A stretch of DNA of 64,000 nucleotides from Candidatus Omnitrophota bacterium (GCA_030632085.1 DAOVJY010000003.1:23809-87808), one strand, 5' to 3'. Shown: positions 6,976-56,206, counted from the stretch's first letter. Made by a program: numbers and translations. The notes: a model not told the origin generated them from the letters alone.

Positions 6976-7029
6976 AGAAATAAAAGTGGTGCGTTCGAAG
7001 GGGGAACCTCCACGTTAAAAAAAGTAAAA

Positions 7030-7066: not shown

Positions 7067-7114
7067 ACAGAACAATATTTTCTGTTGAGATTTTAAAGGA
7101 AAGGTGGTAAAATT

Positions 7115-7405
7115 ATGCCAAAGATAAAAGATTTACCAAAAGACCAAAGACCAAGAGAAAAATTATTGAAATATGGGCCAGAGTCTTTGCTCGACAAAGA
7201 ACTTTTGGCTATCTTAATCGGACACGGGCTTAAGGGCAAATCTGCCATAGAAATGGCAGAAGAATTATTAACAGAGTATAAAGACCTCAAAGGGTTAGCA
7301 GGGAAAAGATTAGATGGGTTTATGAAAATTAAGGGCATAAAAGAAGCAAAAATTATTAAAATCGCTACTGCATTTGAAATAGCAAAACGAATTTATTTTA
7401 CATAA
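7115..7405 (+). CDS. RadC N-terminal HhH domain protein (UPF0758 N-terminal region only; no JAB/MPN domain)
   Basis: IKDLPKDQRPREKLLKYGPESLLDKELLAILIGHGLKGKSAIEMAEELL...IKGI..AK matches the conserved N-terminal HhH region of RadC/YicR. The ORF ends at 96 aa without the HNHPSG-containing JAB domain. Strong RBS AAGGAAAGGTGG. Confidence 0.7.
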   Translation: MPKIKDLPKDQRPREKLLKYGPESLLDKELLAILIGHGLKGKSAIEMAEELLTEYKDLKGLAGKRLDGFMKIKGIKEAKIIKIATAFEIAKRIYFT

Positions 7406-9874
7406 ATGAATATGTCAAAAAAAGAAAACAAAACGACAATAACCGATCCATTTCAAAATAAAAAGCATATCAATTATGCTCTTGTGGAATCTACGCGTCC
7501 GATGATGTATAAAGCTCTAAAATATTGGGGCAAAAAGCCGCACAATATTTTTAGAAAGTACATCGAAAATTATACAGAGAAAAATGAGATAGTACTTGAC
7601 GCTTTTGCGGGAAGCGGTATTGCCCCATTGGAAGCAATACAGGCAAATAGAAAGGCTGTTGCGATAGATCTCAATCCTATATCCACCTTTATGATTGAAA
7701 TACTTGCTAAGCCTCTTAATTATTCAAAGTTCAGAAAATATTACAGCGAAATTTTAACAAAACTTAGCGAGGAAGAAAGAAAATTAGGGGTTTTTATTAC
7801 TAAATGTGAAAAATGTGGAAGCACTGCTAGGGTAATAGGTATTCATTGGAATGGCGATACGCCAATACTTATAAGATATGAATGTCCATGCACAAAAGGA
7901 AACCAAGGCAAAAATCCTGATAATTTTGATATCCAAATTATTAAGAAATCAGAGAAATTAAAAATTCCTTATTGGTATCCGCAAGATGAGTTTCCAAAAA
8001 CAGATTTTTTCAAATCAGTTCGAAGGGGAATTGGTGATCAATATTATAAGCTTTGGACCAAGAGAACGCTTTATTTGCTATCATTTTTGTATAAAGAAAT
8101 TGAGGATATTGATGATGAAGAAATAAAAGATTTTTTGAAATTTGCTTTTATTTCAATGATTCACCTTGTCTCAAATATGGTTTCAGCAAGAAGACCAAAA
8201 AGCAAAAGACCAGATTCTGGTAGTTGGGGAAGACCAGCATTTATTTTGCCCAAAAGACACATGGAACAAAATCCAGTTATTTTGTTTCAAAGAGCTGTTG
8301 AAGATAGGCAAGGCGTCATAAAAGCAAAAAAATCATCAGAAAAATTACTTGCAAACAAGGTAAAAATAACAAAAAACTTTCAAGAATTAGCTAACGACAA
8401 AAAAGATAAAAATTTACTCATTTTGACGATTGACACTCTGGATTTATCAAAAAATATTCCAGAAAACAGCATTGATTATGTTATAACAGATCCGCCCTAT
8501 GGTGGACTAATCCAATACTTTAGCTTGAGCAGTCTTTGGGCAATCTGGCTAAAGCATAATAACAAAAAATTTGAAATTCCCTATGAGGATGAGATAACTA
8601 TTGAACACAAAAAGGATTTTGAACGATATCATAATCTTCTCACTAAAGCATTGCGCGAAATTTATAAAGTCCTCAAACCCGGGCACTACTTAACTCTCAC
8701 TTTTCACAACAGAGAAATTAATGTTTGGAACTCTGTTATTAAGGCTGGTGCGTATTCAGGATTTGTTTTTGAAAAAATTTTATATCAACCAAATAAACGA
8801 GCTTCGGAGGCAGGAGTTGCTATGCCTTACGGTAGCGCAATAAGCGATTATTATTTGCGATTTAAGAAACCTGAAAAAGCGGGTGTGTCTGATCATCAAA
8901 AAATGGATAAAGAAGAATACGAAAGAGTTGTCGTCAAAGCCACTAAAGATATTATTGCATTAAGAAGTGAACCAACAGAAATGACTTTTATTTTGAACGG
9001 TATTTATACCGAGTTATTTTCAACAGGAAGATTTTTTGAGGGTAGCCACGACGATATTGTAAATATTCTTAAAGAAAATATCGGAAAGGTATTTGTTCTT
9101 ATTGAAAACAAGGAAGGCAAACTCGGGCCCAAATGGTGGTTAAAAAATCCAGAGGATATGCTTTTCAAACAAGTACCTTTATCAGATAGAATTGAAAAAG
9201 TAGTGCTTGATATGTTGCGTGGAAATATTAAAGTTACTTTTGATGAAATTCTACAAAAATTATTTATCACTTTCCCGAACGGGTTAACACCTGACGCAAA
9301 GGGAGTTATAGAAGTATTGAAAGAATATGCAACGACGACTGGAGATGGTCGGTGGCGATATAAACCAGAAGTAAATTATAGAGATTCTGAGCACAGCGAA
9401 ATGATTTACTATTTATCCGAAATCGGCAAAAAGGCAGGCTATAAGGTTTGGATTGGGAGTAAAGAGCAGGGCGATACTTTTAAAGATGAGAAACTTTCAA
9501 AATATTGTACTGTGCTAAATCTTAAACTTTCCGGATTTTCCGATAAAGAACTTCGCCGAATCGCAATGATAGATGTCCTTTGGTGTGACGATACTTCTGT
9601 TAAATATGTTTTTGAGATTGAAAATAGTACAAGTATTACATCTGCGATAGAAAGAGCTTCGCATATTCCGGAAGAGTACGATGTAAAAAGATTTATTGTT
9701 ATACCAGAAGAAAGACAAAAAATGCTTGAGAGAAAAATGAATGAGCCGATGTTTCAAGAAGGGTATAATAAATATAAATGGCAAACTATTCATTATGACG
9801 CATTGAAAGATTTTTATAATCTTCACAAGGGCGGCAAAACACTTAAACGCGATGATTTGTCTAACTTAAAATAA
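7406..9874 (+). CDS. DNA methyltransferase (amino-MTase, motif I then TRD/zinc-ribbon then DPPY; alpha-like order) with a roughly 350-aa C-terminal extension
   Basis: Motif X/I VLDAFAGSGIAPLEAIQANRKAVAIDLNP. Cys4 zinc ribbon CEKCGS...ECPC. Motif IV ITDPPYGG, with LKPGHYLTLTFHN after it. The C-terminal region holds a possible PD-(D/E)xK-like stretch, IDVLWCDD...YVFEIENS. Confidence 0.75.
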   Translation: MNMSKKENKTTITDPFQNKKHINYALVESTRPMMYKALKYWGKKPHNIFRKYIENYTEKNEIVLDAFAGSGIAPLEAIQANRKAVAIDLNPISTFMIEILAKPLNYSKFRKYYSEILTKLSEEERKLGVFITKCEKCGSTARVIGIHWNGDTPILIRYECPCTKGNQGKNPDNFDIQIIKKSEKLKIPYWYPQDEFPKTDFFKSVRRGIGDQYYKLWTKRTLYLLSFLYKEIEDIDDEEIKDFLKFAFISMIHLVSNMVSARRPKSKRPDSGSWGRPAFILPKRHMEQNPVILFQRAVEDRQGVIKAKKSSEKLLANKVKITKNFQELANDKKDKNLLILTIDTLDLSKNIPENSIDYVITDPPYGGLIQYFSLSSLWAIWLKHNNKKFEIPYEDEITIEHKKDFERYHNLLTKALREIYKVLKPGHYLTLTFHNREINVWNSVIKAGAYSGFVFEKILYQPNKRASEAGVAMPYGSAISDYYLRFKKPEKAGVSDHQKMDKEEYERVVVKATKDIIALRSEPTEMTFILNGIYTELFSTGRFFEGSHDDIVNILKENIGKVFVLIENKEGKLGPKWWLKNPEDMLFKQVPLSDRIEKVVLDMLRGNIKVTFDEILQKLFITFPNGLTPDAKGVIEVLKEYATTTGDGRWRYKPEVNYRDSEHSEMIYYLSEIGKKAGYKVWIGSKEQGDTFKDEKLSKYCTVLNLKLSGFSDKELRRIAMIDVLWCDDTSVKYVFEIENSTSITSAIERASHIPEEYDVKRFIVIPEERQKMLERKMNEPMFQEGYNKYKWQTIHYDALKDFYNLHKGGKTLKRDDLSNLK

Positions 9875-9878
9875 ATTT

Positions 9879-10721
9879 ATGTTAAAAAAGAATCCTCAAA
9901 AAAAAGCAAAATACGACAAACGTAACATCCTCAACGATTTAACTGGTAGGGATTGGTTGTTATTAACCAAAAGCGTTTGGATAAGCGAAAAGTGTGCTGA
10001 TGATAAGTTCGCGTTTCAACATCCAGCTCCTTTTTTAATCAATGATATTAAAAAACTGATTAGATTTTTTACTAAAAAAAATATGACAGTGCTTGATCCG
10101 TTTTGCGGTTCAGGGACAACCTTAGTCGCAAGCGCGCAAGAGAATAGAAAAGGAATCGGAATAGATTTAAGTAAAAAATATTGCCAAATGAGCCGAAAAC
10201 GCTTGCAAGATTTAAAGTTGAAAAAAAATCAACAAGTAGTTTGCGGGGATTCTCTCAAAAAAATATCTCAAATTAAAGGGAAGATTGATTATTGCGTAAC
10301 TTCGCCACCGTACCACAATATTTTAAGACATAATGGCGGTGGGTTGAGGGAGGCCAAAGCAAAAAATATTAGAAATGGTGCAAGAATTGGTGTTGAATAT
10401 TATTCCGATGACAAACGGGATTTAGGTAATCAGGCGCAATATAAAGATTTTCTCGCGCTATTAAAAAAAGTAATGATAGAGATTTATAAAAAATTGAGGG
10501 ACAAAAAATACTCCTCAATAATTATTAGTGATTTTACTGTAAATAAAAAAGAAACAAATGCAAGCGGTGATGTAATTCGGTTCATGCAAAACATAGGTTT
10601 TAGTTTTGAAGGTATGGTTGTGCTTGTTCAAGACAATAAGCCCCTTTATCCTTTTGGTTATCCTTATGCCTACAAAATGAATCACCATCATCAATATATT
10701 TTGAATTTTAGAAAACTATGA
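9879..10721 (+). CDS. small DNA methyltransferase (SPPY motif; N4-cytosine/N6-adenine amino-MTase), paralogous to the N-terminal module of the upstream MTase
   Basis: HPAPFLINDIKKLIRFFTKKNMTVLDPFCGSGTTLVASAQENRKGIGIDLS (motifs X-I), then CVTSPPYHN (motif IV). Overlaps or abuts the neighbouring genes. Confidence 0.75.
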   Translation: MLKKNPQKKAKYDKRNILNDLTGRDWLLLTKSVWISEKCADDKFAFQHPAPFLINDIKKLIRFFTKKNMTVLDPFCGSGTTLVASAQENRKGIGIDLSKKYCQMSRKRLQDLKLKKNQQVVCGDSLKKISQIKGKIDYCVTSPPYHNILRHNGGGLREAKAKNIRNGARIGVEYYSDDKRDLGNQAQYKDFLALLKKVMIEIYKKLRDKKYSSIIISDFTVNKKETNASGDVIRFMQNIGFSFEGMVVLVQDNKPLYPFGYPYAYKMNHHHQYILNFRKL

Positions 10722-39830: not shown

Positions 39831-39906
39831 TCCTCGGTGGCTCAGTTGGTAGAGCGGGTGACTGTTAATCACTAGGTCGTAGGTTCGAGTCCTACCCGGG
39901 GAGCCA
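39831..39906 (+). tRNA. tRNA-Asn (anticodon GUU)
   Basis: Acceptor TCCTCGG/CCGGGGA, D-arm GCTCAGTTGGTAGAGC, anticodon loop CTGTTAA, T-arm GTAGGTTCGAGTCCTAC, then GCCA. Confidence 0.8.
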
Positions 39907-40317
39907 ACATACCCCAATGTTGATAACACAACATTGTTTATGATAGAACAACCTGAAAAAGGAGGTGATGTGTAATGAATAAGATAATATCTTGGATATT
40001 ATCTAAGATTACACCGCAACTCCAGCCTCCTCGATTTAAAACCCGGCCAAGTAAATAAAACTCTATTTACCGTCGGATACTTTTAAATAAGGAATTCTTA
40101 GGGTTGTTTTGAAGGATGTTTTGCTTTGGAAGAGTTAATGCTCTAAGCCGAAGTTCTGTTTTATTATTGAATTTCATAGAGGATAAAAGGCACAATAAAG
40201 TGGAGGTAGCAGATACCTTTAATGGAGCTTTCGTTGAAGCCTGCTACTAAAACATCCCAAGTTTAAATGTAAGCAACTTCATGCCATAACGCAAAACGGA
40301 GACATAACTCTTATTTC

Positions 40318-41118
40318 TTGTACATTTATATGAAAAAAGCACCTATAAAAAAATCCATTAAATTCGATTTGATAAATAATGCCAGAAGCTCCTTAAATCA
40401 TGCTGTTGCCCATCTTACTAACTTAGATGGAACAAAAGAAGATGATCTTAAGTTTGCAATTCGGGATGTTGCACATGTTGTTGAGCTTTTGCTTAAAGAA
40501 TGCTTGAGACGTATTCATCCAGCTTTTATCTGGCAAAATGTCGATAAATATCCCTCAGAAGCTCATACCGTGCACACAAATACGGCGGTTAGAAGACTCT
40601 TAAAAATAGGCGGCATCAATTTAGATGAAGAAGATCAACAAACAATAGATGCCTGTAGAAAATTTAGGAATAAGGTTGAACATTATGAATTTGAATTAAA
40701 TACCAAAGAAACAGAAGTTATTATAGGAAGGATGTTATCTTTTATATTTAATTTCTCGAATAAGCATTTAGGACTTAATTTAGAAAAAGAATTTCGTAGT
40801 GATGATACATGGAAAGCACTTATTGAGATGTATGAATTTTGGGAAGCGCATCATGTTGGAGTTGAGAAACAGCTAGAAAATGAAGGGAAGCATGTTGTTG
40901 AATGCCCTTCATGTGGGGCAATAACATTTGATCTTGAAGTAGGAGAATGCGCCTTGTGTGACCATACAGAGACAATGGTCAAATGTGATATTTGTGATGA
41001 AAAAGTGCTGGATTCAGAAATTGAAGCATGTGGAGATGCTGATATGGGCGATGAAGTTCTTGTTTGCAAAAGCTGTATAGAGGCTCAGGCAGAAGCTTAT
41101 TATGGAGAAGGATATTGA
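40318..41118 (+). CDS. hypothetical protein with HEPN-like Rx4H motif and C-terminal multi-Cys zinc ribbon
   Basis: CRKFRNKVEHYEF fits R-N-x-x-x-H. The C-terminus has CPSCG...CALCD...CDICD...CKSC. The likely start is Met at 40330. Confidence 0.45.
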   Translation: MYIYMKKAPIKKSIKFDLINNARSSLNHAVAHLTNLDGTKEDDLKFAIRDVAHVVELLLKECLRRIHPAFIWQNVDKYPSEAHTVHTNTAVRRLLKIGGINLDEEDQQTIDACRKFRNKVEHYEFELNTKETEVIIGRMLSFIFNFSNKHLGLNLEKEFRSDDTWKALIEMYEFWEAHHVGVEKQLENEGKHVVECPSCGAITFDLEVGECALCDHTETMVKCDICDEKVLDSEIEACGDADMGDEVLVCKSCIEAQAEAYYGEGY

Positions 41119-41239
41119 TAATGGGTTTATGTGAAAATGGATAAAACAAAGCTTAAAACAATAAAATCCCTCACTGCCCAATTTGAACAATTCCTCAAAG
41201 CCTGCAAAGGCGAAGGCGACACTACCATAAATGATGTCC

Positions 41240-42787
41240 TTAAGCGTCTTGAAGATCTAAAAAAGGAAACTTAACTCCAGGCGTATAATACACAATTTCA
41301 ATTTCTTCTTCTTTTATTATAATCTTCTCAATAAACTTCTTCAAAAACTCTCGTTTTTCTTGAATATTATTGCCTATAAAAGTTACTTCCATTTCTTTTC
41401 TAAAATTATCTATCATTGTTCTTGAGATGTGTATTGGCCGATGCCGGCTATTTAAATTCTCATAATACGCTATTTCTTCTTGAAGAGAATCTTTTTGACT
41501 TTTTAATTCTTTTAACCTCGGAGCAACAAGGGCTACATCAATAATCCCACTTTCAATAGCTTCATACTGTCTCATAACACGATTATGCAAATCGCTAGCT
41601 TTTTTCTTAAGGTCTGTTATTTTCATCCAATAGTCAGTTCTTAAAGATTTAGCAGCTTGGTTTATATCATCAACCAAATTTTTCATATTCTCATCTGAAA
41701 AAAGAAGATCTTTTACTCTTTCAATTATTTCGTTATCAAGTTCATCCGCACGCACTCTATAACCGGAACAAACATCTTTACCCTTTTTAGAATAAGTTAT
41801 ACAGTTGTAATAGGCATATTTTTTATCTCTGCCATAGCCGGTCACGCCATAAGTAGCATTACATTTACCGCATCTCATTAGACCGGATAGAAGATAAGAG
41901 CTTGAAGTCACTCTTGCTGGTTGATTTTTAGGTTGCCTTTTTTCAATAAGTCTTTGTACTTTGTTGAATAAATCTTCGCTTATAATAGCCTCGTGAGTAT
42001 TTTTAATAATAATCCACTGGTCTTTTGGCTTAAATTGCTTGCCGTAAGTTTTTTTATCCCTTTTATTAAATACTGTCCAGCCGATGTGCGATTCATTCCT
42101 CAATACATTTGCCACAGTGGATTTGCTCCAATTGCCGCCTGATCGTGGTTTATGATCATGGGTATTAAGATAAGTAACAATATTCTTAAGTCCATTGCCT
42201 TTGACGTATAATTCAAAGATAAGTTTAACTATTGCTGCTTCAGATTCATTGATTTCGTATTTTGTTCTTTGATTTTTATTTTCATCATAAATATGCACAT
42301 TTTTATAGCCGAAAGCTGCATATCCGCCATTTCGGTAGCCTTTCCTGGTATTTTCAATTAATCCTCTCAAAGTCTCTTGCCCTAAGACAGCGCTGTAAAA
42401 TTCATCAATAACCTCAATCATTCCTTCCATTAATTGTCCTTGAGGTGTATTATCTATTGGCTCTGATATTGAAATAACTTCGACTCCGCGCTTTTTTAAC
42501 ATAGCTTTATAGATGATGCTATCTTGCCTATTTCTTGCAAATCTGGATAATTTCCAAACTAAAATAGCTTGAAACGTTGGAAACTTTTTCTTAGTTTCTG
42601 CTATCATTTTTAAAAAAGCCGGCCTGTCAGTTGATAGAGCGCTTTCAGCTTCATCTATATATTCTTTATAGACTGCCATGTTATGCTTTAAGGCATATTC
42701 ATGAAGAAGTCTTAGTTGAGATGGTATGCTATTATTCTTATCAGCTTGTTGGTTACTTGATACGCGAGCATATAAAGCTACTTTCAT
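41240..42787 (-). CDS. large serine recombinase (resolvase/invertase N-domain + recombinase domain + zinc ribbon)
   Basis: N-terminus MKVALYARVSSNQQ carries the catalytic Ser. The protein is 515 aa, with a CGKCNATYG...YYNC zinc ribbon. Confidence 0.8.
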   Translation of the reverse strand: MKVALYARVSSNQQADKNNSIPSQLRLLHEYALKHNMAVYKEYIDEAESALSTDRPAFLKMIAETKKKFPTFQAILVWKLSRFARNRQDSIIYKAMLKKRGVEVISISEPIDNTPQGQLMEGMIEVIDEFYSAVLGQETLRGLIENTRKGYRNGGYAAFGYKNVHIYDENKNQRTKYEINESEAAIVKLIFELYVKGNGLKNIVTYLNTHDHKPRSGGNWSKSTVANVLRNESHIGWTVFNKRDKKTYGKQFKPKDQWIIIKNTHEAIISEDLFNKVQRLIEKRQPKNQPARVTSSSYLLSGLMRCGKCNATYGVTGYGRDKKYAYYNCITYSKKGKDVCSGYRVRADELDNEIIERVKDLLFSDENMKNLVDDINQAAKSLRTDYWMKITDLKKKASDLHNRVMRQYEAIESGIIDVALVAPRLKELKSQKDSLQEEIAYYENLNSRHRPIHISRTMIDNFRKEMEVTFIGNNIQEKREFLKKFIEKIIIKEEEIEIVYYTPGVKFPFLDLQDA

Positions 42788-42963
42788 TTTGCTACCACCT
42801 CCAATTCTTTTTGTTCAATGACGATATAATTATCTGTGTATATGGCTTGATTTTTAGCCTTGTTTGCGAAAAAATGAGCTAACTCTTTTACTTTAGATTT
42901 ATACCACTGCTCAACAGAGGGGTTATTATTTTTACTTATAGTCTCTGCAATCTTAACGTTCAT
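42784..42963 (-). CDS. small hypothetical protein translationally coupled to the serine recombinase
   Basis: Manually read 59-aa ORF, MNVKIAETISKNNNPSVEQWYKSKVKELAHFF... Its stop overlaps the recombinase ATG (ATGA). Confidence 0.35.
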   Translation of the reverse strand: MNVKIAETISKNNNPSVEQWYKSKVKELAHFFANKAKNQAIYTDNYIVIEQKELEVVAK

Positions 42964-43252
42964 TTTTCACCTCCAGGTCAATTGTGTTATAAATTCTTAT
43001 ATGGATATTGCAGGTTAGGTTATATTCTTTACTTAAAAGCCTAACTATTCTGCACATCCTTAATGCCATAGGCAAAATAAAGGGAAGAGAGGTACGCATC
43101 TTTTGCCGGTCCAAAATATTTATTCTCTCTTTGACAAGCGAAATATGTATCATGACAGGCCTCCTTTCGGTTATTTACTTTAAACTTTTAAAGTAAAAGG
43201 ATAAAAAATATATGGTTACTTTAAAGTTTTCAAGTAAATGTTTAAAAAAATA

Positions 43253-43429
43253 TTACTTTTCATATCTTTTAATATATTCGTCTACACTTTCCTGTGAAAA
43301 AAACTTATATTTTCCTGCAACAGACTCCGGCTTTATCCGGCCTTCTTTTATGAGCCAGTGTATACCCTGGGGTGTCTTGTTTAACATCTTTGCAACCTCT
43401 TTAACGGTTAATAATTTTTTCTCTTCCAT
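43253..43429 (-). CDS. Xis-like HTH DNA-binding protein (excisionase/HTH_17-like)
   Basis: Manually read 58-aa ORF, MEEKKLLTVKEVAKMLNKTPQGIHWLIKEGRIKPE... The pattern is typical of the excisionase/MerR-like HTH. Confidence 0.45.
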   Translation of the reverse strand: MEEKKLLTVKEVAKMLNKTPQGIHWLIKEGRIKPESVAGKYKFFSQESVDEYIKRYEK

Positions 43430-43860
43430 ACAACTATAATGGTAGCATATTACTTTAAAGTTGTCAAGTAAAATTTTTTATATTTTTATTTATTTGGTAA
43501 ATATTTGACAAACGCGCCAATAAGTTGTAGGATGTGACCAATACCTCTAAGGAGGTGGTGCTTTATTTCAAAGTTTTTGTCAAAGGGCCCAGGTCTCACT
43601 ATAGTCACATAGCTCACTGGAATGAAAATTGAATTGGTTTAGGAGTTGGGGCCCATCAAAAAGCCAGACCCATTAAATTATAGGACGTGGGCTATGACAT
43701 GTCCTATTCTTCTTGACACCTTTCTTGAAAATCAAATATATCACAATCAAGAGGATACAATACCTAAGTAATTGACAAAACACGACTACTTTGCTAAAAT
43801 TAATCCATGCCAAGAATAGCAAGAGCAGTAGTGTTAAATTACCCTCACCACATAATCTAA

Positions 43861-44106
43861 AGAGGTAATAGAAGGCAAGAGGTATTTTTCGAAGAAAGTG
43901 ATTATAAAAAGTATTTATACTTGATTAAAGATAATTCTGCATGCTTTAAATTAAAAGTATTATCTTATTGTCTAATGTTTGATCACATGCACTTAATAGT
44001 TATTTCTCAAGAGAAGGATAGTTTTGCCCAGGGCATTGGAGAAACTCACCGCAGTTACACCAGATATATGGTATTAAATCCAGTTGAAGCAAAAATCGCA
44101 AAGTAA
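43861..44106 (+). pseudogene. IS200/IS605-RAYT-like Y1 transposase fragment (HuH transposase remnant)
   Basis: HuH motif in YCLMFDHMHLIV and the RAYT C-terminal motif RYMVLNPVEAKIAK. It has no proper start and only about 80 aa of a roughly 140-aa protein. Confidence 0.6.
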
Positions 44107-44358
44107 GCTAAGGAAAGGACTATGAATGGTTAAAAAAGCGGAAGAGGGCAGGCAAAAAAGCGAATGTTTTGCTTAAGCCTAGTTTAATTTTATTTGACTT
44201 TATTATATTAACCAAGTATAATTAAGAGGAAATGAAGCAGTTTGAATCAAGCTTATTATTGGTATATAGTAGTGAGGTAATTTTAGGGTTATTATTATCG
44301 TTGCTGTTTTATTTTATTCCATTGGTTTTTGCTATGTTACATAAAGTTAGAAATTAAT

Positions 44359-44568
44359 ATGCCTACTCAAGAAAATAATAAAAGAGAAAATTTTTTAAAA
44401 GCTTACGCAAATCTTCCATTAAATACACGAAAAGAAGTCATTCTCATTTTAGATTTAGGAGAAAAAAAACAACCTATTACTTGGGAAGTTGCTTATCTTG
44501 AAATAAGAAATAATACGCAGGAGAGTAAAAGAATTTTAGAAAAATTAGAAAAATTAGGATTAATTTAA
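44359..44568 (+). CDS. small hypothetical protein (first gene of a three-gene cassette)
   Basis: MPTQENNKRENFLKAYANLPLNTRKEV... Its stop overlaps the next start (TAATG). Confidence 0.35.
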   Translation: MPTQENNKRENFLKAYANLPLNTRKEVILILDLGEKKQPITWEVAYLEIRNNTQESKRILEKLEKLGLI

Positions 44569-44825
44569 TGGCAAGGGAAGAAGAATTAAAAAAATCAGGA
44601 AAAATTTCAGAAGATCTCAAAAATTTAGTAATTTATAGGCTTGACACTCTACCTTCGGATAAAAAAATTTCTATTGGTTCATCTGGCGAGTTTTCTAAAT
44701 CCGAATTAATTGAGCATGTAAAAAGAGGGGATGGTATTGGGCAACAAATCGCCGATATTGAAATAACCTTTTTAAGAGCTTTAAAGGATGGGACTTTGTT
44801 GGAAGATATGATCCGATTAGATTGA
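44568..44825 (+). CDS. small hypothetical protein (second gene of the cassette)
   Basis: ORF of 85 aa, translationally coupled on both sides. Confidence 0.4.
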   Translation: MAREEELKKSGKISEDLKNLVIYRLDTLPSDKKISIGSSGEFSKSELIEHVKRGDGIGQQIADIEITFLRALKDGTLLEDMIRLD

Positions 44826-44837
44826 TGGCAGAATTAT

Positions 44838-45485
44838 ATGGCAAAAACACTACTAATTACAAGACCAGAGCATGATTGTGCAACTATCTATCTTTCCAAA
44901 TGGAGCAAAGAAATAATACAAAAAGCAAAAAAGAAAGGGCTTTGCGTTATAGATCTTCACCGTGATAAGGCAAATAGAGATAGAGTTGTTGGAACTTTAG
45001 AAAAAACAAATCCTAAATTAGTCGTTTTAAATGGTCATGGAAGTGAAAATTCTGTTAAGGGCCACAAGGATGAGGTTATTTTGAAGATCGATGATAAGAA
45101 AGCCATTAAAGATAAAATTATCTATGCACGTTCTTGTAAGTCTGCAAAAAAATTAGGACAAAAAATCATTACTAATGGAGCAAGGGCTTATCTGGGATAT
45201 ACTGAAGATTTTATCTTTACATATAGCGTAAACAAAACATCTAAACCCCTAGAAGATAAAGAGGCAGCTTTGTTTTTAGAACCCTCAAATCGCATTCCTC
45301 TCTCTTTGCTAAAGAATCATACCGCAGGGGAAGCTAACGAACAGTCAAAGGGATTGTTTAAGAAAAATATTGAAAAGCTGTTAGTCGAAGGCCCTTCTTC
45401 CGAGCATTATAGTGCTATTAGTTATTTATACTGGGATATGATTAATCAAGTTTGCCTAGGAGACAAAGAAGCGGTTCTTGCATAA
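44838..45485 (+). CDS. putative caspase-fold (peptidase C14-like) protein, minimal
   Basis: A hydrophobic strand is followed by HG (LVVLNGHGSEN), then about 50 aa later by IIYARSCKSAKKLG. This is the His/Cys dyad spacing of caspase/metacaspase/CHAT domains. The call rests on motifs only. Confidence 0.35.
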   Translation: MAKTLLITRPEHDCATIYLSKWSKEIIQKAKKKGLCVIDLHRDKANRDRVVGTLEKTNPKLVVLNGHGSENSVKGHKDEVILKIDDKKAIKDKIIYARSCKSAKKLGQKIITNGARAYLGYTEDFIFTYSVNKTSKPLEDKEAALFLEPSNRIPLSLLKNHTAGEANEQSKGLFKKNIEKLLVEGPSSEHYSAISYLYWDMINQVCLGDKEAVLA

Positions 45486-45697
45486 CTTTTTGCTACTGAT
45501 TGTTACAATGTGCCTACCCGAGCAAAATTTTTTTCGGTAACAACTTATCTCCAAACAGTAATGCTTAATTATTCCCTGAGTGGGTATTTAAACAAGTGTT
45601 AAATTAGCTTCTTCAAATAGCACTTTTATAATACTTAAATCAATTTCAAGGCTAATATCCCTGTTGCGAAACAAGTCATATATGGGGAGCCAAAATC

Positions 45698-45740
45698 AAA
45701 AAAAGGTCCGCTCATTAATTTGGGCGGATTTTTTTATTTT
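45698..45740 (+). terminator. terminator-like hairpin immediately after the GGGGAGCCAAAAT repeat
   Basis: AAAAAAAGGTCCGC-loop-GGCGGATTTTTTTATTTT. Confidence 0.5.
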
Positions 45741-45876
45741 AAGGACAAGAGAGCGTAAGCCCAAAAAGGGGTTTTAAGGGGAAAATTATTATTTTGCTAT
45801 TGACAGAATAAGCAATGTATGTTAATATACTGTTCGTATGTTAAATATGTTTACTTATTTTTAAAGGAGCAAACAA

Positions 45877-46089
45877 ATGAACGACAAGAAGGAAAGATTT
45901 AAAAGGTTGGCAACAAAAAGGACTAATACTATCCTGCAGAAAATTAAAGTATTAGGAAATTGTTCCAATAGGCAGATATACGACTATACCGAAGAGCAAA
46001 TAAATAGTATTTTTTTTGTAATAGAAAGAAAAGTTAAAGAGGCTAAAGCAAAGTTTCATTTTTCGAAAGAAGATAAATTTAAATTATAA
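45877..46089 (+). CDS. small hypothetical protein upstream of the GHKL ATPase
   Basis: ORF of 70 aa. An AAAGGAGCAAACAAATG RBS precedes it and an AGGAG RBS follows for the next gene. Confidence 0.4.
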   Translation: MNDKKERFKRLATKRTNTILQKIKVLGNCSNRQIYDYTEEQINSIFFVIERKVKEAKAKFHFSKEDKFKL

Positions 46090-46104
46090 GATTAGGAGAT
46101 TACC

Positions 46105-48507
46105 ATGGATACAAAGAAACTATTTTGGTCAATATTTAGCGCCAAAGATGAAGCTGCATTACATAATATAGTTTTACGGAATGAGTTGTTAAGTAATAAT
46201 CATAATTGGTTTCCCTATGGTGGCAGAGATAAAAATGACAGAAGTAATTTTGGTACTTTTGAAAATCAACAAAGTAATCCTGTGCCGGCATTAATAGAAA
46301 AGGTAACCAATTCCATAGACTCTCTTCTATTAAAACAATGTAAATTAATGAAAATTGACCCTAAGTCAAAAGAAGCTCCTTCGAATATGGCTATCGCGGT
46401 TGAGAAATTTTTCGATATAAAAAATGGCGATTTTAGTGAAATATCGCAATCTGGGCGGAGAAGCATTGCAGAAGATATTCAGGTTATAGCTGAAGGTGAT
46501 AAGCAAATGCCCAATTTGTTGATATATGATTATGGCGAAGGCCAGCATCCAGACGACTTTCATAAGACGTTTCTGTCTCTTTCCAGGTGTAATAAAACAG
46601 ATATACCCTTTGTGCAAGGAAAATATAATATGGGATCCACTGGAGCAGTAATATTTTGTGGAGACCATAGGTATCAGTTGATTGCTTCAAAATTATGCAA
46701 CGAATTAAATACAAAAGCATCTAATGATTTTGGTTTTACTTTGGTAAGAAAACACCCTTTAACTGAAGAAGAAGAGGGGCGCTTAAAAAGTAGTTGGTAT
46801 GAATATTTTACTATTGATGGAAAGATCCCGCGCTTCAGTATTAAAGAGATAGATTTAGGCTTATACAAAAGAAAATTTACAACAGGAGCTATCGTCAAGC
46901 TATATTCTTATGGATTACCTAAGGGCTCACGATCATATGTTACGTGGGATCTTTGGAGAGATTTTAATCATTATTTATATCATCCGGCTTTACCTTTTCT
47001 AGTTTATGAAAAAAGGTGGTCAAATCAAAAAACTCCATCTAAGCCTGTATTGGGTAACAAAATCAGACTAACGCTTGATGATAGAGACAAGAAGGAGGAT
47101 GAGAGTCTCACTATAACAATTTCGGATTCTAAAATAGGTGAAGTTCCAATAGAGACACATGTTTTTAAACAACATGTTGACCAAAAGGAATTCATTAATA
47201 ACAAAGCTGTGGTTTTTACGCAAAATGGCCAAGTTCATGGATTTTTGACAAGATCATTTATTTCTAAAGTCCTTGGTTTTCCTTTATTACGGGATCATAT
47301 GCTAATACAAGTTAATTGTACCAAGATTAAAACATCTGTTCGCCAAGATCTCTTTAAGGGGTCAAGAGATAGGTTGAATGAAGGCATAAAAACAGAACTA
47401 TTAATAGATAAAATTACTGTTGCATTGAGAGATAATGAAAAATTAAAGCTGCTAAATCAAAATCGAAAAAATAGAATATTGAGAGAAAGCACTGAAGATA
47501 AAAACTTACTGGCAACCGTGCTAACTAATCTTTCCATTGATAAAGAAATAATGAAGTTACTTAAAAATAATGAGGAATTTAATTTATTTAAGAAACTAAA
47601 TAAATTTAAGAAGGAAGATAAAGCTGATAAGCAAAAAGAGAACAAAAAAGCAAAATATATTTCCAAAAGGTTCCCATCTATATTCAAAATCAATATAGAT
47701 GAAAATGGCTTCGGGAAAAAACTAAAAAGCGTTCCTTTGGGTGGGAAGGGAATAATTAGGTTTGCGACAGATGTTGAAGACGAATATCTTTTTAGACCTA
47801 AGGAAAAGGGAGAATTGGAACTTGCTGTTCTCGGCATAAAATCTAATGGAGGCGGCGGAGATGATGGCTCAAACCCTTCTAAAGTAGAGGATATATTCGA
47901 TATTACTAAAGCAGGGCCAACAGACAATTCAATAAAAATTACATTTGAACCTAAAGCCAATGTGAACGTTGGCGATGAAATCGAATTAAAAGCTCGACTA
48001 TCTTCTCCGAGCGGAGATTTAGAATCAATATTTTGGGTACGGATTATAGATCCGCAACAAACAGGTCAAAAAGTTAAAGAAAATAAGGAAAAAGATAATA
48101 TTGCACCCCCAATTCCTATTAGAGTTTTTGAGTATGCAGAAAAAAAAGAAGATAAAACGTGGGAAGATTATGGCTGGGGCGGCAATGATATAACTAAAAT
48201 TATTACATCGCAAGTTGGGAAGGGTGAAACAGCAATAGAAGCTATAGCAGTTAATATGGGTTGTTTTGCATTAAAGAGATTCCTTTCTAAGAAGCAGTTT
48301 AAAACAGAAGAAGAAATAAGAACAATTAAAAACAAATTTTTCATAACTGTATATCTACACAGCCTGTTTCTATACAGCATTCTTGATAGAATAAATAAAG
48401 ACGAAAATTGTGACACAGAGATAGATCCAGATGATATTGTTCCGATAATTTTTAAACCTTATAGCAACTTTCTTCTTTCTTCGAGTATGATTGAAAGTTT
48501 GATATAA
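46105..48507 (+). CDS. GHKL-family (HATPase_c_3-like) ATPase domain protein, 800 aa, with an uncharacterised C-terminal region
   Basis: N-box-like VPALIEKVTNSIDSLL. G1 LLIYDYGEGQHPDDF. G2 GKYNMGSTGAVIF. These are Bergerat-fold ATP-binding motifs in the first 200 aa or so. The remainder has no recognisable motif apart from a Gly-rich GGGGDDG segment. Confidence 0.5.
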   Translation: MDTKKLFWSIFSAKDEAALHNIVLRNELLSNNHNWFPYGGRDKNDRSNFGTFENQQSNPVPALIEKVTNSIDSLLLKQCKLMKIDPKSKEAPSNMAIAVEKFFDIKNGDFSEISQSGRRSIAEDIQVIAEGDKQMPNLLIYDYGEGQHPDDFHKTFLSLSRCNKTDIPFVQGKYNMGSTGAVIFCGDHRYQLIASKLCNELNTKASNDFGFTLVRKHPLTEEEEGRLKSSWYEYFTIDGKIPRFSIKEIDLGLYKRKFTTGAIVKLYSYGLPKGSRSYVTWDLWRDFNHYLYHPALPFLVYEKRWSNQKTPSKPVLGNKIRLTLDDRDKKEDESLTITISDSKIGEVPIETHVFKQHVDQKEFINNKAVVFTQNGQVHGFLTRSFISKVLGFPLLRDHMLIQVNCTKIKTSVRQDLFKGSRDRLNEGIKTELLIDKITVALRDNEKLKLLNQNRKNRILRESTEDKNLLATVLTNLSIDKEIMKLLKNNEEFNLFKKLNKFKKEDKADKQKENKKAKYISKRFPSIFKINIDENGFGKKLKSVPLGGKGIIRFATDVEDEYLFRPKEKGELELAVLGIKSNGGGGDDGSNPSKVEDIFDITKAGPTDNSIKITFEPKANVNVGDEIELKARLSSPSGDLESIFWVRIIDPQQTGQKVKENKEKDNIAPPIPIRVFEYAEKKEDKTWEDYGWGGNDITKIITSQVGKGETAIEAIAVNMGCFALKRFLSKKQFKTEEEIRTIKNKFFITVYLHSLFLYSILDRINKDENCDTEIDPDDIVPIIFKPYSNFLLSSSMIESLI

Positions 48508-48571
48508 TATACAGAGAAATACAAAGATAAAGAGAGAGGCACCTTTTTATTTATAAATAGGAGACAAAAAA

Positions 48572-49276
48572 ATGAAAGAAAAATTGTGTTCTATGGTGAA
48601 TAGGGAAGTAAAATTAAATCATCAAACGTTGAAAGTAGAAAAACAAAACGCGAAAGCTTTAATTGAAGGCTTTTTGAAAAAGTCTGAACCCAAGAGGTGT
48701 TACTCCTCTATATTTACCGCTCATTTAAGGGCAGTGTCACTGCAAAGAGATTTTCGTTGTGTACCAAAATTATTAACAACATTTAGGGCGGGCCCTAGGG
48801 CGATATATCCTTTAAGTTATATTGGCGAGAGTTTGCATGCTGAAGGATATGCGACGAGCGGAACACACATTGCAATTTTAGATCGAATTTTTCATATAGA
48901 AAATAATATGAAAATTTGGGAAAACTTATGCAATAACGGCATCTTCGACATATGGGAACCAGAAGCGCCTTATAATAGTCTTCGCGAAAAAGACGGACTT
49001 CGCGACAAAATTGATCCCATGATTCTCTTGTTAAGAATATTTGAGATTGATAAAGATTTTAGTGATGAAATATATTTAGGTAGATATTCAGACAGCATTG
49101 TAGGGAGTCGCGTTAGAATAATTTGCCCTATAATACCAGCTGATAAAGATGATAAATTTAGTGCTGATTATGACGGAACTTACTACTTCAAAGACATTAT
49201 TGAAAAAATAAGAAACGGGATATCAAATTACTTAATTCAAGAAGAAAAACTGTGTGATACTTCTAAAATGTATTAA
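48572..49276 (+). CDS. hypothetical protein (234 aa), partner of the GHKL ATPase
   Basis: ORF with no recognised motif. It lies in the same orientation 65 nt downstream. Confidence 0.4.
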   Translation: MKEKLCSMVNREVKLNHQTLKVEKQNAKALIEGFLKKSEPKRCYSSIFTAHLRAVSLQRDFRCVPKLLTTFRAGPRAIYPLSYIGESLHAEGYATSGTHIAILDRIFHIENNMKIWENLCNNGIFDIWEPEAPYNSLREKDGLRDKIDPMILLLRIFEIDKDFSDEIYLGRYSDSIVGSRVRIICPIIPADKDDKFSADYDGTYYFKDIIEKIRNGISNYLIQEEKLCDTSKMY

Positions 49277-49492
49277 AGGTTCCACCGAATGAAAATCGGG
49301 AAGATACAATACTTAAATGATCAAGAATGCAAAAAAGCGGGAGGGCAGGTTCTTTGGGAAAGGGTCGTCCAAGATTGATTGAATTTCGTTTCCCTTACGG
49401 ATATACATCTTTGCAAGTAGTTGCATTACTTGAGATTTGATTTTTGAAGTGATAAAATATAGGATAAATAAGGCTTATAGCCTGTAGAAACA

Positions 49493-49846
49493 TTGAAGGG
49501 GGAGGATTTGATGAAAAAAATTAAAACAAAGATGAAAAAGCAAATTACCAAAGCGATAGGAAAGCAGTTTAAAAAGGTTATTGCGAAGAACGTAGATGCT
49601 GCTGACCCAAGCGCTTTAAATGGCGCTGCAAAACTGGCAGAGGAAATAGCTTTAAAGACTTTTGGTATAAAGGCAACTGCAAATGCAAAATCTAAAATGA
49701 CTACATCAAAAACAAAGAGCAAAGAATTTAAAATAAAGATTAAGGGTATGGAAAAAGCAGCATGGGATGCTTTAAAGGGAGCAGAAATAGATAAAGCCCT
49801 TAAGGAGCGATTAAAAGTAGAGGTACGCTTTACTTACAGATTTTAA
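49493..49846 (+). CDS. lysine-rich low-complexity hypothetical protein
   Basis: ORF of 117 aa with a GGGGGA RBS and a composition of K/A/T repeats. Confidence 0.35.
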   Translation: MKGEDLMKKIKTKMKKQITKAIGKQFKKVIAKNVDAADPSALNGAAKLAEEIALKTFGIKATANAKSKMTTSKTKSKEFKIKIKGMEKAAWDALKGAEIDKALKERLKVEVRFTYRF

Positions 49847-50030
49847 CTAAGTGATTACAAAGCGTAAGGCATGAAAAAAGTTCGTTATCTTTTAACTGTA
49901 CATCAAACCAAGCAGATACAGTAAAAAATAACCTCTTTTCTATAATTCTAGGAGGAGCACAATATTTAAAAAAGTCCTAAAAGTTTAATGGGATGTTTTT
50001 GCCTTTTTTGTTATCAACATCGTCTAGTCC

Positions 50031-50179
50031 GGGGAGCCAAAATTTAAAAGGCCGCATGAAAGTGTGGCCTTTTAAATTATTAACCTCTGGAAACTTGACG
50101 AGAACCTACGACTTGAAGAATGGTTCTGACCGAGCAGAGCGAGGAAATGCCGAACAAGTTATTTAAATTCGGCGCCTAC
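50031..50179 (+). repeat. copy 1 of a roughly 150-nt structured direct repeat, beginning with the tRNA-Asn 3' core
   Basis: Aligns with 51178-51330. Three stems are conserved, with compensatory changes in the first (GGCCGCA/TGTGGCC versus GGCCGTG/CGCGGCC). Confidence 0.6.
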
Positions 50180-50498
50180 CCGGAGAGCAAACATTTGTAA
50201 CTTATTTATTTTAAATAAGGTACAATAAGCATACCTTTCTATTTTTAGATGGGCTTTTTCTTTGGTTTGCTGTAAAATTTAAAGATTTATAAGTAATTAA
50301 GTTAATGGTATTGAATTTAGTGATTAGTGTGGTATAATTGGTATAGATGGAATGAGGAAATGTACTAGACAAAAAGTTCTTGACAGATTGAATGTTATAA
50401 GGTAATATTACTTATCATCCCAGCGAAGTCTCGTATTTCGTTGGCCCCGAATTCCTTAATGGATTCGGGTTTTTTTATATATAAAATGGAGAGAAAAT

Positions 50499-51110
50499 GT
50501 GAATAGAGTTGCTGTTTTTGTTGACGGGTTTAATCTTTATCACGCCTTGGACTGTGATTTAGTATACCATAAATATAAATGGTTAGACCTTGAAAAGTTT
50601 TCAAAATGCTTTACTTTACCTGGAGATACCCTTGGTGATGTTTTATATTTTACTGCATATATAACTTGGAACTCTCAAAAATTAGCTAAGCATCAAATTT
50701 ATATCAAAGCTCTGCAATTAGTTGGTGTCACTCCTGTCTTTGGAGCCTTTAGAATGAAAGATACTGTTTGTCGAATATGCCATAGAGCATATAAAAAACC
50801 TGAAGAAAAACAAACAGATGTTAATATTGCGATAAAGCTTTTTGAAACTGCAATATCTGATACTTGGGATACTGCTTTGATTGTATCTGGAGATAGCGAC
50901 CTTATCCCGGCTATACAAGCTGTTAAAAGAACCTTTCCAATCAAAAGAATAGGCATTGTCATACCAATTGGGAGAAGAGCGGAAGAATTGAAAAAAGTTG
51001 CAGATTTTCATAGTAAGGTAAAGCAAAAACATTTAAAAACCTGTCAATTTAATGATGTTATAACGCTTAATAATAATCATACCTTAAAGCGTCCTGATTC
51101 TTGGAAGTAG
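50499..51110 (+). CDS. NYN-domain (LabA/DUF88-like PIN-fold) nuclease
   Basis: N-terminus MNRVAVFVDGFNLYHAL with the conserved D, plus SGDSDL. A cysteine-containing insert CRICHRAY is present. Confidence 0.65.
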   Translation: MNRVAVFVDGFNLYHALDCDLVYHKYKWLDLEKFSKCFTLPGDTLGDVLYFTAYITWNSQKLAKHQIYIKALQLVGVTPVFGAFRMKDTVCRICHRAYKKPEEKQTDVNIAIKLFETAISDTWDTALIVSGDSDLIPAIQAVKRTFPIKRIGIVIPIGRRAEELKKVADFHSKVKQKHLKTCQFNDVITLNNNHTLKRPDSWK

Positions 51111-51177
51111 TTTAAATGAAAAAGGGCAGTTGTATTTCATAGTTAGTATGCAGAAAGTTGCGAATCTCGTTCAATGC

Positions 51178-51330
51178 GGGGAGCCAAAATTTAAAAGGCC
51201 GTGTGAAAGCGCGGCCTTTTAAATTATTAACCTCTGGAAGATTGACGAGAACCTTGTGCCGTAAGGCACAGGTTGAGCGACCGACCGCAGCGAGGAAATG
51301 CCGAACAAGTTATTTGAAGTCGGCGCCTAC
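51178..51330 (+). repeat. copy 2 of the roughly 150-nt structured direct repeat
   Basis: See copy 1. The ORF-track 51158-51382 spans it and is probably spurious. Confidence 0.6.
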
Positions 51331-51649
51331 AAACTTAGCATTATATAGCTTGTTTAAGCGTTTATTTACTTACTCACGTTGATTTCTAAGCATGCTTAGA
51401 CGTTTCTCTTGCAGTCCTCAGCATTCTTATTGCTTTCCTTTTAACTCTTGCCATAGCCGGTAAGGCGGTATCAGGGGTAGGCTTAAAATAGTGACAAATT
51501 AGTAGAAATAGTGTACAATACATGCTCGTTACATAGTAATTAATAAAATGAAGATGTTTAAAGACCGCTAGGTTTAGAAGCATTTGCCTAAGTGGTTTTT
51601 ATTTTTTAACACAATTAAACAAATAAACACAAAAGTAGGTTATTAGATT

Positions 51650-55526: not shown

Positions 55527-55913
55527 TTGACAAATGTACCAATTATGATACACTTAGAAAAGATGAAGATAGAAAATCATTTACCAGTTTTATTTTATAG
55601 AACCGACACAGGAAAAGAACCCGTGAGGGAATGGTTACAATTTCTATCTAAGAAGGAAAAAAAGCTAATAGGTGAAGATATTAAAACTGTTCAATTCGGT
55701 TGGCCGTTAGGAATGCCGTTGGTGAGAAAATTAATTCCCGGAATATGGGAAATACGAACGCAATTAGATAATAAAATTTCACGGGTTTTATTTACCATTT
55801 ATGAAAACCATTGTGTTCTTCTCCATGGATTTATTAAGAAAACACAGAAAATACCAAAGCAAGATTTAGATTTGGCTATTCAACGAATGAAACAAGTAAA
55901 AAAAGGCGGCTAA
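55527..55913 (+). CDS. type II toxin, RelE/ParE superfamily (gp49/HigB-like, COG4679)
   Basis: A small basic protein of about 110-128 aa with the HigB-like pattern ...RVLFTIYENHCVLLHGFIKKTQKIP... It is followed at a 2-nt gap by an HTH antitoxin. Confidence 0.55.
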   Translation: MTNVPIMIHLEKMKIENHLPVLFYRTDTGKEPVREWLQFLSKKEKKLIGEDIKTVQFGWPLGMPLVRKLIPGIWEIRTQLDNKISRVLFTIYENHCVLLHGFIKKTQKIPKQDLDLAIQRMKQVKKGG

Positions 55914-55915
55914 TT

Positions 55916-56206
55916 ATGAAAAAAAAGAATAAGCATATAGGCAGTAATTTTGATAATTTTCTCCAGAAAGAAGGTATATTAGAGGAAGCACAGGCCGCGG
56001 CCGCTAAAAGAGTTATTGCGTTTCAGATCCAAAAGATTATGAAAGAAAAACACATCACTAAAACAGAGATGACGAACCGAATGCATATAAAAGGCCGTAT
56101 GCAATTAAATAGATTGCTTGATCCAACCAACAAGTCTGTAACCCTTTTGACGTTAGAAAAAGCTGCTACCGCGCTTGGTAAAAACTTAAAAGTTCAGTTT
56201 GTCTAA
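55916..56206 (+). CDS. HTH (XRE-like) antitoxin, HigA-like (COG5606)
   Basis: HTH region KHITKTEMTNRMHIKGRMQLNRLL. Confidence 0.55.
   Translation: MKKKNKHIGSNFDNFLQKEGILEEAQAAAAKRVIAFQIQKIMKEKHITKTEMTNRMHIKGRMQLNRLLDPTNKSVTLLTLEKAATALGKNLKVQFV

Follow-up and report, generated by a model that had tools for sequence, protein, structure and literature searches.

A two-gene GHKL ATPase cassette in a composite tRNA-Asn island of a Candidatus Omnitrophota bacterium

In GyrB, MutL, Hsp90 and MORC, it is established that ATP drives dimerization of the N-terminal domains and so closes a clamp. We analyzed the gene of a predicted GHKL (Bergerat-fold) ATPase of 800 amino acids (aa) in a stretch of 64,000 nucleotides (nt) from a Candidatus Omnitrophota bacterium (GCA_030632085.1 DAOVJY010000003.1:23809-87808); the whole stretch is hereafter called the window. 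The ATPase and a 70-aa protein encoded directly upstream form a two-gene cassette of a large, unnamed GHKL family.

Several described systems resemble this cassette in part. The 800-aa protein shares with the paraMORC and prokaryotic MORC proteins of restriction-modification operons (Iyer, Abhiman and Aravind 2008, PMC2292703) an N-terminal GHKL domain with intact motifs, a transducer-type domain, a family-specific C-terminal extension, a patchy and laterally mobile distribution, and relatives linked to DNA methylases. VcSduA (paraMORC3, Shedu type I-D) carries a C-terminal DUF4263 nuclease of the PD-(D/E)xK type that is required for defence (PMC12137116). It resembles our protein in being one large protein with an N-terminal GHKL domain, a clamp-like middle domain and a location in defence islands. 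Further, for approximately 84% of sspBCD clusters no restriction partner (SspE or SspFGH) is known (PMC8092258).

A sequence-only reading of positions 45877-49846 had proposed an integrase-less islet in which a MORC/paraMORC-like GHKL protein and three uncharacterized partners form a potentially new configuration. All four open reading frames (ORFs) of the proposed sizes were present, and a second, independent gene call, made on the 349-kb metagenomic source scaffold (ENA ERZ23498525; source metagenome SRR13892601), returned identical genes, save that the last ORF was called as 111 aa. The ORFs (ORF calls) and the promoter-like site upstream of them are as follows.

45800-45828, + strand: promoter-like site TTGACA-17-TAATAT with an upstream TG (consensus scan)
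45877-46089, + strand: 70-aa ORF
46105-48507, + strand: 800-aa ORF, GHKL ATPase
48572-49276, + strand: 234-aa ORF
49493-49846, + strand: 117-aa lysine-rich ORF with a TTG start (111 aa from the ATG at 49511)

A gap of 15 nt separates the 70-aa gene from the 800-aa gene, and an AGGAG precedes the start of the 800-aa ORF. The promoter-like site precedes the 70-aa gene by 49 nt; it matches the consensus, and such sites were no more common than in shuffled sequences. The 234-aa gene follows the 800-aa gene after 64 nt with no terminator called between them, and the 117-aa ORF has a separate promoter-like site at 49430-49458 (consensus scan; the number of sites in this region was not above that in shuffles). 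None of the four proteins had a significant match in Pfam, PADLOC (PADLOC-DB 2.0), NCBIfam or PDB sequences. Weak matches to COMPASS-Shg1, Pus10_THUMP, PhnX-like, OspC, RUB1 and PRP1_N were dismissed as noise, as was DUF4145 (4 of 30 members, E 0.05).

We fetched 82 foreign GHKL loci and searched each of them with every protein of this segment, which is module 2 of the island described below. A homologue of the 70-aa protein was found in 20 of the 82 loci, always directly upstream of the GHKL gene and on the same strand. Its distance to the start of the ATPase match was 7-49 nt, and the called ORFs often abutted or overlapped by 4 nt. In contrast, the 234-aa and 117-aa proteins were found in none of these loci and were also absent beside relatives 73-77% identical to the 800-aa protein. 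Thus, among the three proposed partners, the 70-aa protein stood as a conserved neighbour, whereas the other two never accompanied the ATPase gene elsewhere. The sequence-only reading had itself named separate occurrence in other genomes as grounds for refutation, and this applies to the 234-aa and 117-aa proteins. We concluded that the 70-aa protein is a genuine, conserved partner of the GHKL ATPase, that the functional unit within module 2 is a two-gene operon in which a helical protein of 70 aa is encoded ahead of the 800-aa GHKL ATPase, and that the 234-aa and 117-aa genes are cargo unrelated to this pair. The finding therefore comprises fewer genes and has a broader scope than first proposed. 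For annotation, the "four-gene system" amounts to a patchwork of cargo genes that are independent of one another, in which only the two-gene unit is worth carrying forward.

The 70-aa family comprises at least 295 homologues, which are commonly 65-78% identical, and a search of the family against Pfam and the PDB gave nothing significant. The protein is helical, with a basic N-terminal helix and an invariant C-x-N. R7, F8, R15, C29, N31, Y35 and F68 are invariant in the family, and its core reads RERFKRLAxxRTN...LGNCSN...YEYTEE. The nearest relatives of the window protein occur in bacteria of the candidate phyla radiation (CPR) and in Omnitrophica. In two CPR loci (L075 and L078), the 70-aa genes were 62-66% identical to that of the window, whereas the ATPases were only ~31% identical, suggesting that partner and ATPase have been reshuffled.

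A 70-aa homologue also precedes a 789-aa GHKL protein of a distant clade, with a 4-nt overlap. Further, in another set of loci (L093, positions 5001-10210; also L094 and L095), a 75%-identical homologue precedes a different protein of 647 aa. GHKL motifs were read by eye in this protein (ESIQNIIDAN, DYGTTG and GGSYGLGKAS), which matched neither the hidden Markov model (HMM) of the family nor Pfam; the genes after it at L093 encode a 286-aa protein, DUF6339, Vsr and a C5 DNA methylase. This operon of a 70-aa homologue, a GHKL-motif protein, Vsr and a C5 methylase (Dcm) is close to the paraMORC operons of PMC2292703. Because the 70-aa homologue stands beside a second GHKL-motif protein, it looks like a dedicated accessory of GHKL ATPases, and it appears to partner more than one GHKL family.

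The Bergerat motifs that had been noted in the 800-aa protein were confirmed: motif I (E65-x3-N69-x2-D72), motif II (D142-x-G144-E145-G146) and motif III (G172...G177-x-T179-G180). Motif IV (G210/T212) is present as well. Among 69 full-length relatives, a clade with only 30% identity included, conservation was at least 95% for motifs I-IV and thus for the catalytic Glu, the Mg-binding Asn, the adenine-contacting Asp and both glycine loops. N374-G375-Q376 and K265 in the transducer region were likewise at least 95% conserved in the 69 relatives. In profile searches, the window protein itself had no Pfam match at E <= 0.1, whereas HATPase_c_3 (PF13589) was found in 22 of 33 aligned relatives (best E 2.3e-6).

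An AlphaFold2 (AF2) model built on the alignment of homologues had a predicted local distance difference test score (pLDDT) of 78.8. When the model was compared with the PDB using Foldseek, ParE/GyrB 43K fragments, Hsp90, TRAP1 and Grp94 were matched (E 2e-8 to 1e-4, probability 1.0). The alignments to GyrB/ParE 43K and to the N-M region of Hsp90 span ~370-480 columns and therefore cover both the ATPase and the transducer. At the sequence level, neither the window protein (against PDB sequences) nor the family profile (against PDB chains) gave a match. By its motifs and predicted fold, the 800-aa protein is a true GHKL (Bergerat-fold) ATPase, N-terminal and with a transducer. The AF2 model divides it approximately as follows.

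Residues 1-45: N-terminal helices
Residues ~50-215 (nt 46252-46749): Bergerat ATPase
Residues ~216-425 (nt 46750-47379): transducer
Residues 426-520: helical linker
Residues ~521-720 (nt 47665-48264): two immunoglobulin (Ig)-like beta-sandwiches
Residues 721-795: C-terminal helical hairpin

When residues 425-800 (376 aa) were modelled alone (pLDDT 70.8), the Foldseek matches were Ig-like domains only. In agreement with the sequence-only reading, a nuclease was recognizable neither in the 800-aa protein, by Pfam (window protein and 33 family members) or Foldseek (C-terminal model), nor in the window copies of its neighbours. Pfam revealed no Toprim domain after the transducer in the same set of proteins, and residues 425-800 are predicted to be helical and beta-sandwich. 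PF02518, HisKA and HEF_HK were found in none of the 33 members, and kinship with the two-component-like HEF_HK family (PMC8011034) was rejected because no member carried HEF_HK or HATPase_c. The protein thus differs from sensor histidine kinases and HEF_HK proteins in having no DHp/HisKA or HEF_HK domain, and its predicted fold includes a GyrB-type transducer.

An acidic loop, T555-D556-V-E-D-E-Y561, with R564 (47767-47787), lies within the first predicted Ig-like domain. Conservation of T555, D556, Y561 and R564 is at least 95% and extends to the 30%-identity clade, and the loop is among the best-conserved features outside the ATPase. A Toprim-like reading of T555-Y561 was dropped, as the segment falls in a predicted beta-sandwich.

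The protein differs from the described systems in several respects. Unlike paraMORC and MORC loci, the island in the window contains no methylase, superfamily II helicase or endonuclease gene. The top folds were those of GyrB/ParE and Hsp90, and no MORC or MutL entry was found among the top 50 Foldseek PDB matches. Further, the passages of PMC2292703 that were consulted mention neither an Ig-like C-terminus nor the 70-aa partner. As judged from the model, the likeness to MORC and paraMORC that had been proposed holds at the level of the GHKL-plus-transducer architecture only. In place of the Shedu I-D nuclease, the C-terminus here is predicted to be Ig-like and helical, and DUF4263 was found in none of the 33 members. 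GyrB/ParE 43K and Hsp90/HtpG are the best structural matches, and the residues for ATP binding and hydrolysis are all conserved; in contrast to these proteins, there is here no Toprim domain, no Hsp90 C-terminal domain and a different genomic context.

A database search gave more than 1,500 full-length homologues of ~800 aa, and a profile search of 1.84 billion representatives gave 2,255 clusters (50% identity), 836 of them at E <= 1e-30. The best 150 matches were at most 888 aa long, the full-length ones being mostly ~750-850 aa; accordingly, there were no obvious fusion variants among them. Hosts include Planctomycetota, Bacteroidota, Campylobacterota, Bdellovibrionales, Chloroflexota, Acidobacteriota, CPR bacteria, Firmicutes and metagenome-assembled genomes (MAGs) of Hodarchaeota, and the distribution is patchy over many bacterial phyla and some archaeal MAGs. 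The family had no match in INPHARED and was found at two loci in IMG/VR; the idea of a phage gene was dropped because these viral collections are nearly devoid of the family. No paper describing the family was found in the literature searched. The configuration is undescribed in that literature and in the profile libraries.

In other genomes, the slot directly upstream of the GHKL gene is taken by mutually exclusive partners. Besides the 70-aa protein in its 20 loci, these are a DndB-like DGQHR protein in 12 loci, a ribbon-helix-helix (RHH)-type protein of 350-395 aa in 4 loci and beside a 75%-identical relative, and a DzbB-like protein (after a DzbA-like one) in 3 loci. Fifteen loci of the 30%-identity clade have an N6_N4 methylase gene within ~4.3 kb; in about ten of these, it is the next gene downstream and on the opposite strand. 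In a clade of 36-38% identity, SspB, SspC and SspD genes precede the GHKL gene in 8 loci. The order is SspC-SspD-DzbA-like-DzbB-like-GHKL in three loci (L043, L048 and L051) and SspB-SspC-SspD-210 aa-DndB-like-GHKL in another (L047). When RefSeq plasmids were searched, an SspBCD context was found for three of the four best matches (L122-L124, in Hymenobacter, Ensifer and Devosia; NZ_CP110137, NZ_CP101520 and NZ_CP104964), whose GHKL proteins are annotated "hypothetical protein". Neighbours on these plasmids include genes for PAPS reductase, DUF4007, a class V aminotransferase (a putative cysteine desulfurase), a 3.4-kb ATP-binding protein, DUF262 and SIR2.

The 36-38% relatives thus stand beside SspB, SspC and SspD, where a restriction partner like SspE, SspFGH or DndFGH would sit, and they are possible undescribed restriction partners of Ssp systems. 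They differ from the known partners in that no PADLOC model for SspE, SspFGH or Dnd matches the family; in the window there are no ssp, dnd or Dazbog genes.

The close relatives have mixed neighbours. The 77%-identical relative has a PIN toxin-antitoxin pair on one side and a HigBA-like pair on the other, and the 73%-identical relative adjoins an integrase and a TerL gene. The 395-aa partner of the 75%-identical relative has an N-terminus that looks RHH-like by eye and no Pfam match. Across the near clade, neighbours include YhcG nuclease (five times), PIN (four times), Zeta and GIY-YIG (three times each), as well as integrases.

We assign the 70-aa/800-aa cassette a defence-type role with a probability of roughly 0.55. 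Since relatives are tied to N6/N4 methylases, SspBCD, ParB-type proteins (DndB-like and DzbA-like) and RHH proteins, DNA is the most likely substrate, and the most likely role is to defend against foreign DNA. Further, the cassette lies on a recently inserted, horizontally mobile island that it shares with two catalogued candidate defence genes, a PDC-S64-like gene and a HEC-09 (NYN) gene (PADLOC).

For the mechanism, we tentatively propose a clamp on DNA. Because the ATP site is intact and the transducer is of the GyrB/Hsp90 type, N-terminal dimerization and a gate are expected, as in other GHKL-plus-transducer ATPases. The 800-aa protein would dimerize, and ATP binding would close the N-terminal gate; the C-terminal helices would keep the two subunits joined, and a partner or ligand would be bound by the Ig-like domains. 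Judging from the partners and neighbours of relatives, the clamp would act on DNA and serve self/non-self discrimination. In the window version, the 70-aa protein would be an adaptor or regulatory subunit and the complex would clamp invading DNA, so that its replication or expression would be blocked directly or an unlinked nuclease would be recruited.

More speculatively, the 800-aa GHKL family might be a widespread immune module with no nuclease of its own and with interchangeable upstream partners (70-aa, DndB-like, RHH-type and Dazbog-like), working as a DNA clamp gated by ATP. In many genomes, it might be the reader or restriction arm that orphan SspBCD phosphorothioation and N6/N4 methylation otherwise lack; the cassette in the window would be a modification-independent, stand-alone version. 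If this is true, a GHKL clamp ATPase family of ~2,250 clusters is unnamed in annotation resources and has gone undetected by defence catalogues. Its partner-swapping would then offer a handle both on what restricts DNA in the ~84% of sspBCD clusters without SspE or SspFGH and on how nuclease-less ATPases of the GHKL/MORC type act on foreign DNA.

Several observations weigh against a role in defence by a DNA clamp. No PADLOC model matched any of the 33 family members, and no DNA-binding domain was identified in the 800-aa protein. The links to modification genes were seen only in clades 30-38% identical to the window protein; in the near clade, the gene is often solitary and many of its neighbours are housekeeping genes. 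Approximately three-quarters of the loci have no 70-aa gene, which is therefore non-essential for the core activity of the family. The modelled Ig-like domains and the similarity to Hsp90 would be equally consistent with a protein client. As to the mobility of the island, its serine recombinase scores below the CcrB cut-off, and action of this enzyme on the repeats is putative.

The most probable alternative, although we consider it unlikely, is that the pair acts as a toxin-antitoxin-like or abortive-infection module, in which the GHKL protein would be toxic, by draining ATP or by promiscuous clamping of host DNA or proteins, and the small protein would restrain it until infection or loss of the element. 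The small, translationally coupled upstream gene is like that of antitoxin-toxin operons, the RHH domain of an alternative upstream partner is typical of antitoxins and repressors, and relatives lie among VapBC, HigBA, Zeta and AbiEii genes, the cassette itself being on a mobile island. However, a gene that is missing in approximately three-quarters of the family, many members of which have no small upstream gene of any kind, is ill-suited to be an obligatory antitoxin, and no toxin-type domain was found in the pair.

It is rather improbable that the 800-aa protein is an Hsp90-like chaperone or protein remodeller, with the 70-aa protein as its co-chaperone and an incidental defence context. 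Full-length Hsp90, TRAP1 and Grp94 were among the best Foldseek matches, a viral Hsp90-like protein was the top match in BFVD, and Ig-like domains are common protein-binding modules. No relation to Hsp90 was seen at the sequence level, however, as the profile had no match in the PDB, and GyrB/ParE matched at least equally well. Further, the recurrent operonic links to DndB-like proteins, methylases and SspBCD point to DNA, and the patchy, horizontally transferred distribution is unlike that of a housekeeping chaperone.

A cassette that serves the island itself (DNA topology, maintenance or transfer) and not host defence is very unlikely. Topoisomerases are driven by GHKL-plus-transducer modules, and the cassette occupies a recombinase-less module beside the serine-recombinase module. 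In contrast, no Toprim domain or DNA-cleavage partner was found, the neighbours are wholly variable between loci, and relatives are found in many settings other than islands, as well as next to modification systems. Finally, that the 70-, 800-, 234- and 117-aa genes are one four-component defence system, as their common strand between two repeat copies and the 64-nt gap without a called terminator might suggest, is scarcely credible given the absence of the last two from all 82 other GHKL loci and from beside the 73-77% relatives, the occurrence of 234-aa homologues in other islands without a GHKL gene, and the separate promoter-like site of the 117-aa ORF.

The 234-aa family is rare (28 clusters) and has a conserved FDIWEPxAPY core. 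Some members are longer and carry a C-terminal HNH domain (McrA-like match) or an N-terminal CxxCxGxG zinc ribbon. Homologues of the 234-aa protein (L085-L088) are single genes near type I restriction-modification, OLD/AAA_15 and Mrr_N genes, and GHKL genes are absent from their surroundings; judging from these contexts, the 234-aa gene is a candidate stand-alone defence-island gene. The 117-aa ORF is an orphan.

The composite islands of the staphylococcal cassette chromosome (SCC) include recombinase-less pseudo-SCC elements, which are bounded by direct repeats and lie beside a ccr-bearing element. The cassette in the window has a similar setting. The islet had been described as bounded by GGGGAGCCAA repeats, and this was borne out: exactly four copies occur in the 64 kb, all on the + strand, at 39898, 45684, 50031 and 51178, spanning 11.3 kb, against a chance expectation for an exact 10-mer of ~0.1 copies per 128 kb. 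The copies at 45684, 50031 and 51178 are an identical 13-mer, GGGGAGCCAAAAT, and their similarity reaches 23-40 nt. The first copy, GGGGAGCCAACAT, is the 3' end of a tRNA-Asn gene, and the repeats are copies of this end.

When metagenome contigs were scanned for the tRNA 3' end, a close relative with an uninterrupted site (L110) was found. Its 72-aa protein upstream of the tRNA and its downstream ABC-F protein are 96% and 95% identical, respectively, to those flanking the island in the window. The distance from the tRNA end to the ABC-F start is ~394 nt in L110, compared with 11.7 kb in the window; positions 39907 to ~51450 of the window are therefore an insertion, and homology to L110 resumes at ~51450, its right border. 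An insertion site at a tRNA 3' end, direct repeats and a relative without the insertion, the marks of a tRNA-linked island, were thus all found. The GHKL module is the middle of three modules in a composite island of ~11.5 kb at the tRNA-Asn 3' end, and we hold this anatomy, with the following features, to be very probably correct.

39831-39906, + strand: tRNA-Asn(gtt) (ARAGORN; Rfam tRNA 69.8 bits; alignment to the uninterrupted L110 site)
39898-39910, + strand: first repeat copy, GGGGAGCCAACAT, tRNA-Asn 3' end and left border of the island
39911-45683: module 1, recombinase module
40318-41118, + strand: 266-aa protein, PDC-S64/HEC-08-like, module 1 (PADLOC PDC-S64 5.6e-27)
41240-42787, - strand: 515-aa large serine recombinase, CcrB/XisF-like, module 1 (Pfam Resolvase/Recombinase/Zn_ribbon_recom)
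43253-43429, - strand: HTH_17 protein, module 1 (HTH_17 2.3e-10)
44329-45485, + strand: orphan trio of 79, 85 and 215 aa, module 1 (ORF call)
45684-45696, + strand: repeat copy GGGGAGCCAAAAT, left border of the GHKL module
45697-50030: module 2, GHKL islet
50020-50194: copy 1 of a ~170-nt element
50031-50043, + strand: repeat copy GGGGAGCCAAAAT, right border of the GHKL module, at which copy 1 of the ~170-nt element begins
50044-51177: module 3, NYN cargo
50499-51110, + strand: NYN-domain protein, module 3 (Pfam NYN 9.5e-17; PADLOC HEC-09 2e-60, residues 1-203 of 203)
51167-51340, + strand: copy 2 of the ~170-nt element
51178-51190, + strand: repeat copy GGGGAGCCAAAAT within copy 2 of the ~170-nt element

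The recombinase is encoded only in module 1, 3 kb upstream of the GHKL module; the islet is therefore integrase-less only within its own borders, and the composite island is not. The best NCBIfam match of the 515-aa recombinase was CcrB (4.2e-53), with 180.8 bits compared with a curated cut-off of 900. The island resembles SCC in its insertion at the 3' end of a conserved gene, the repeats that divide its modules, its single recombinase module and the uninterrupted site in a relative. It differs from SCC in that the target is a tRNA gene and not rlmH, that the recombinase falls short of the cut-off and that its specificity for the repeats is putative.

Each GGGGAGCCAAAAT copy is followed by a hairpin, which ends in a T-run at the 45684 copy (45703-45733) and is flanked by A/T at the 50031 and 51178 copies. 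Sub-threshold Rfam matches to Leu and Thr leaders at 45602-45738 were rejected, as they overlap the hairpin and T-run after the repeat. An Rfam scan (E-value) of the 39-52 kb region gave nothing beyond the tRNA.

The NYN protein was found in none of the 82 foreign GHKL loci. The two copies of the ~170-nt element that flank its gene are ~90% identical, and each begins with GGGGAGCCAAAAT and the A/T-flanked hairpin. Copy 1 ends in a second, degenerate tRNA-Asn 3' end (50172-50194). In L110, a homologous mini-element of ~190 nt lies between two tRNA 3' ends at ~3010-3300 (reverse strand) in the otherwise empty site. The element has an RNA-fold z of -4.2 and no Rfam match, and may represent either the decayed remnant of an integration or a structured element of small size.

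In module 1, the 266-aa protein, the first after the tRNA, also had weaker matches to HEC-08, DUF3644 and Csx1, and its C-terminal region is Cys-rich. The 79-, 85- and 215-aa genes are densely packed, with noise-level matches (DUF6873 0.0095, BovA 0.014), and no relatives of them were found across the fetched loci. A 61-aa ORF at 43921-44106 (...FDHMHLIV...) may be a fragment of an IS200/RAYT-type Y1 transposase, as read by eye from its translation.

Outside the island, a tblastn search with the motif region of the N6_N4 methylase of distant GHKL relatives gave matches at 7523-7720 (1.6e-9) and 10014-10169 (1.8e-5), ~36-39 kb from the cassette and without linkage to it. At 55623-56206, ~4 kb past the island, a 96-aa Gp49 (HigB-like) gene and a 96-aa partner are likely a toxin-antitoxin pair; a similar pair, Gp49 and HTH_3, flanks the 77%-identical GHKL relative (L089).

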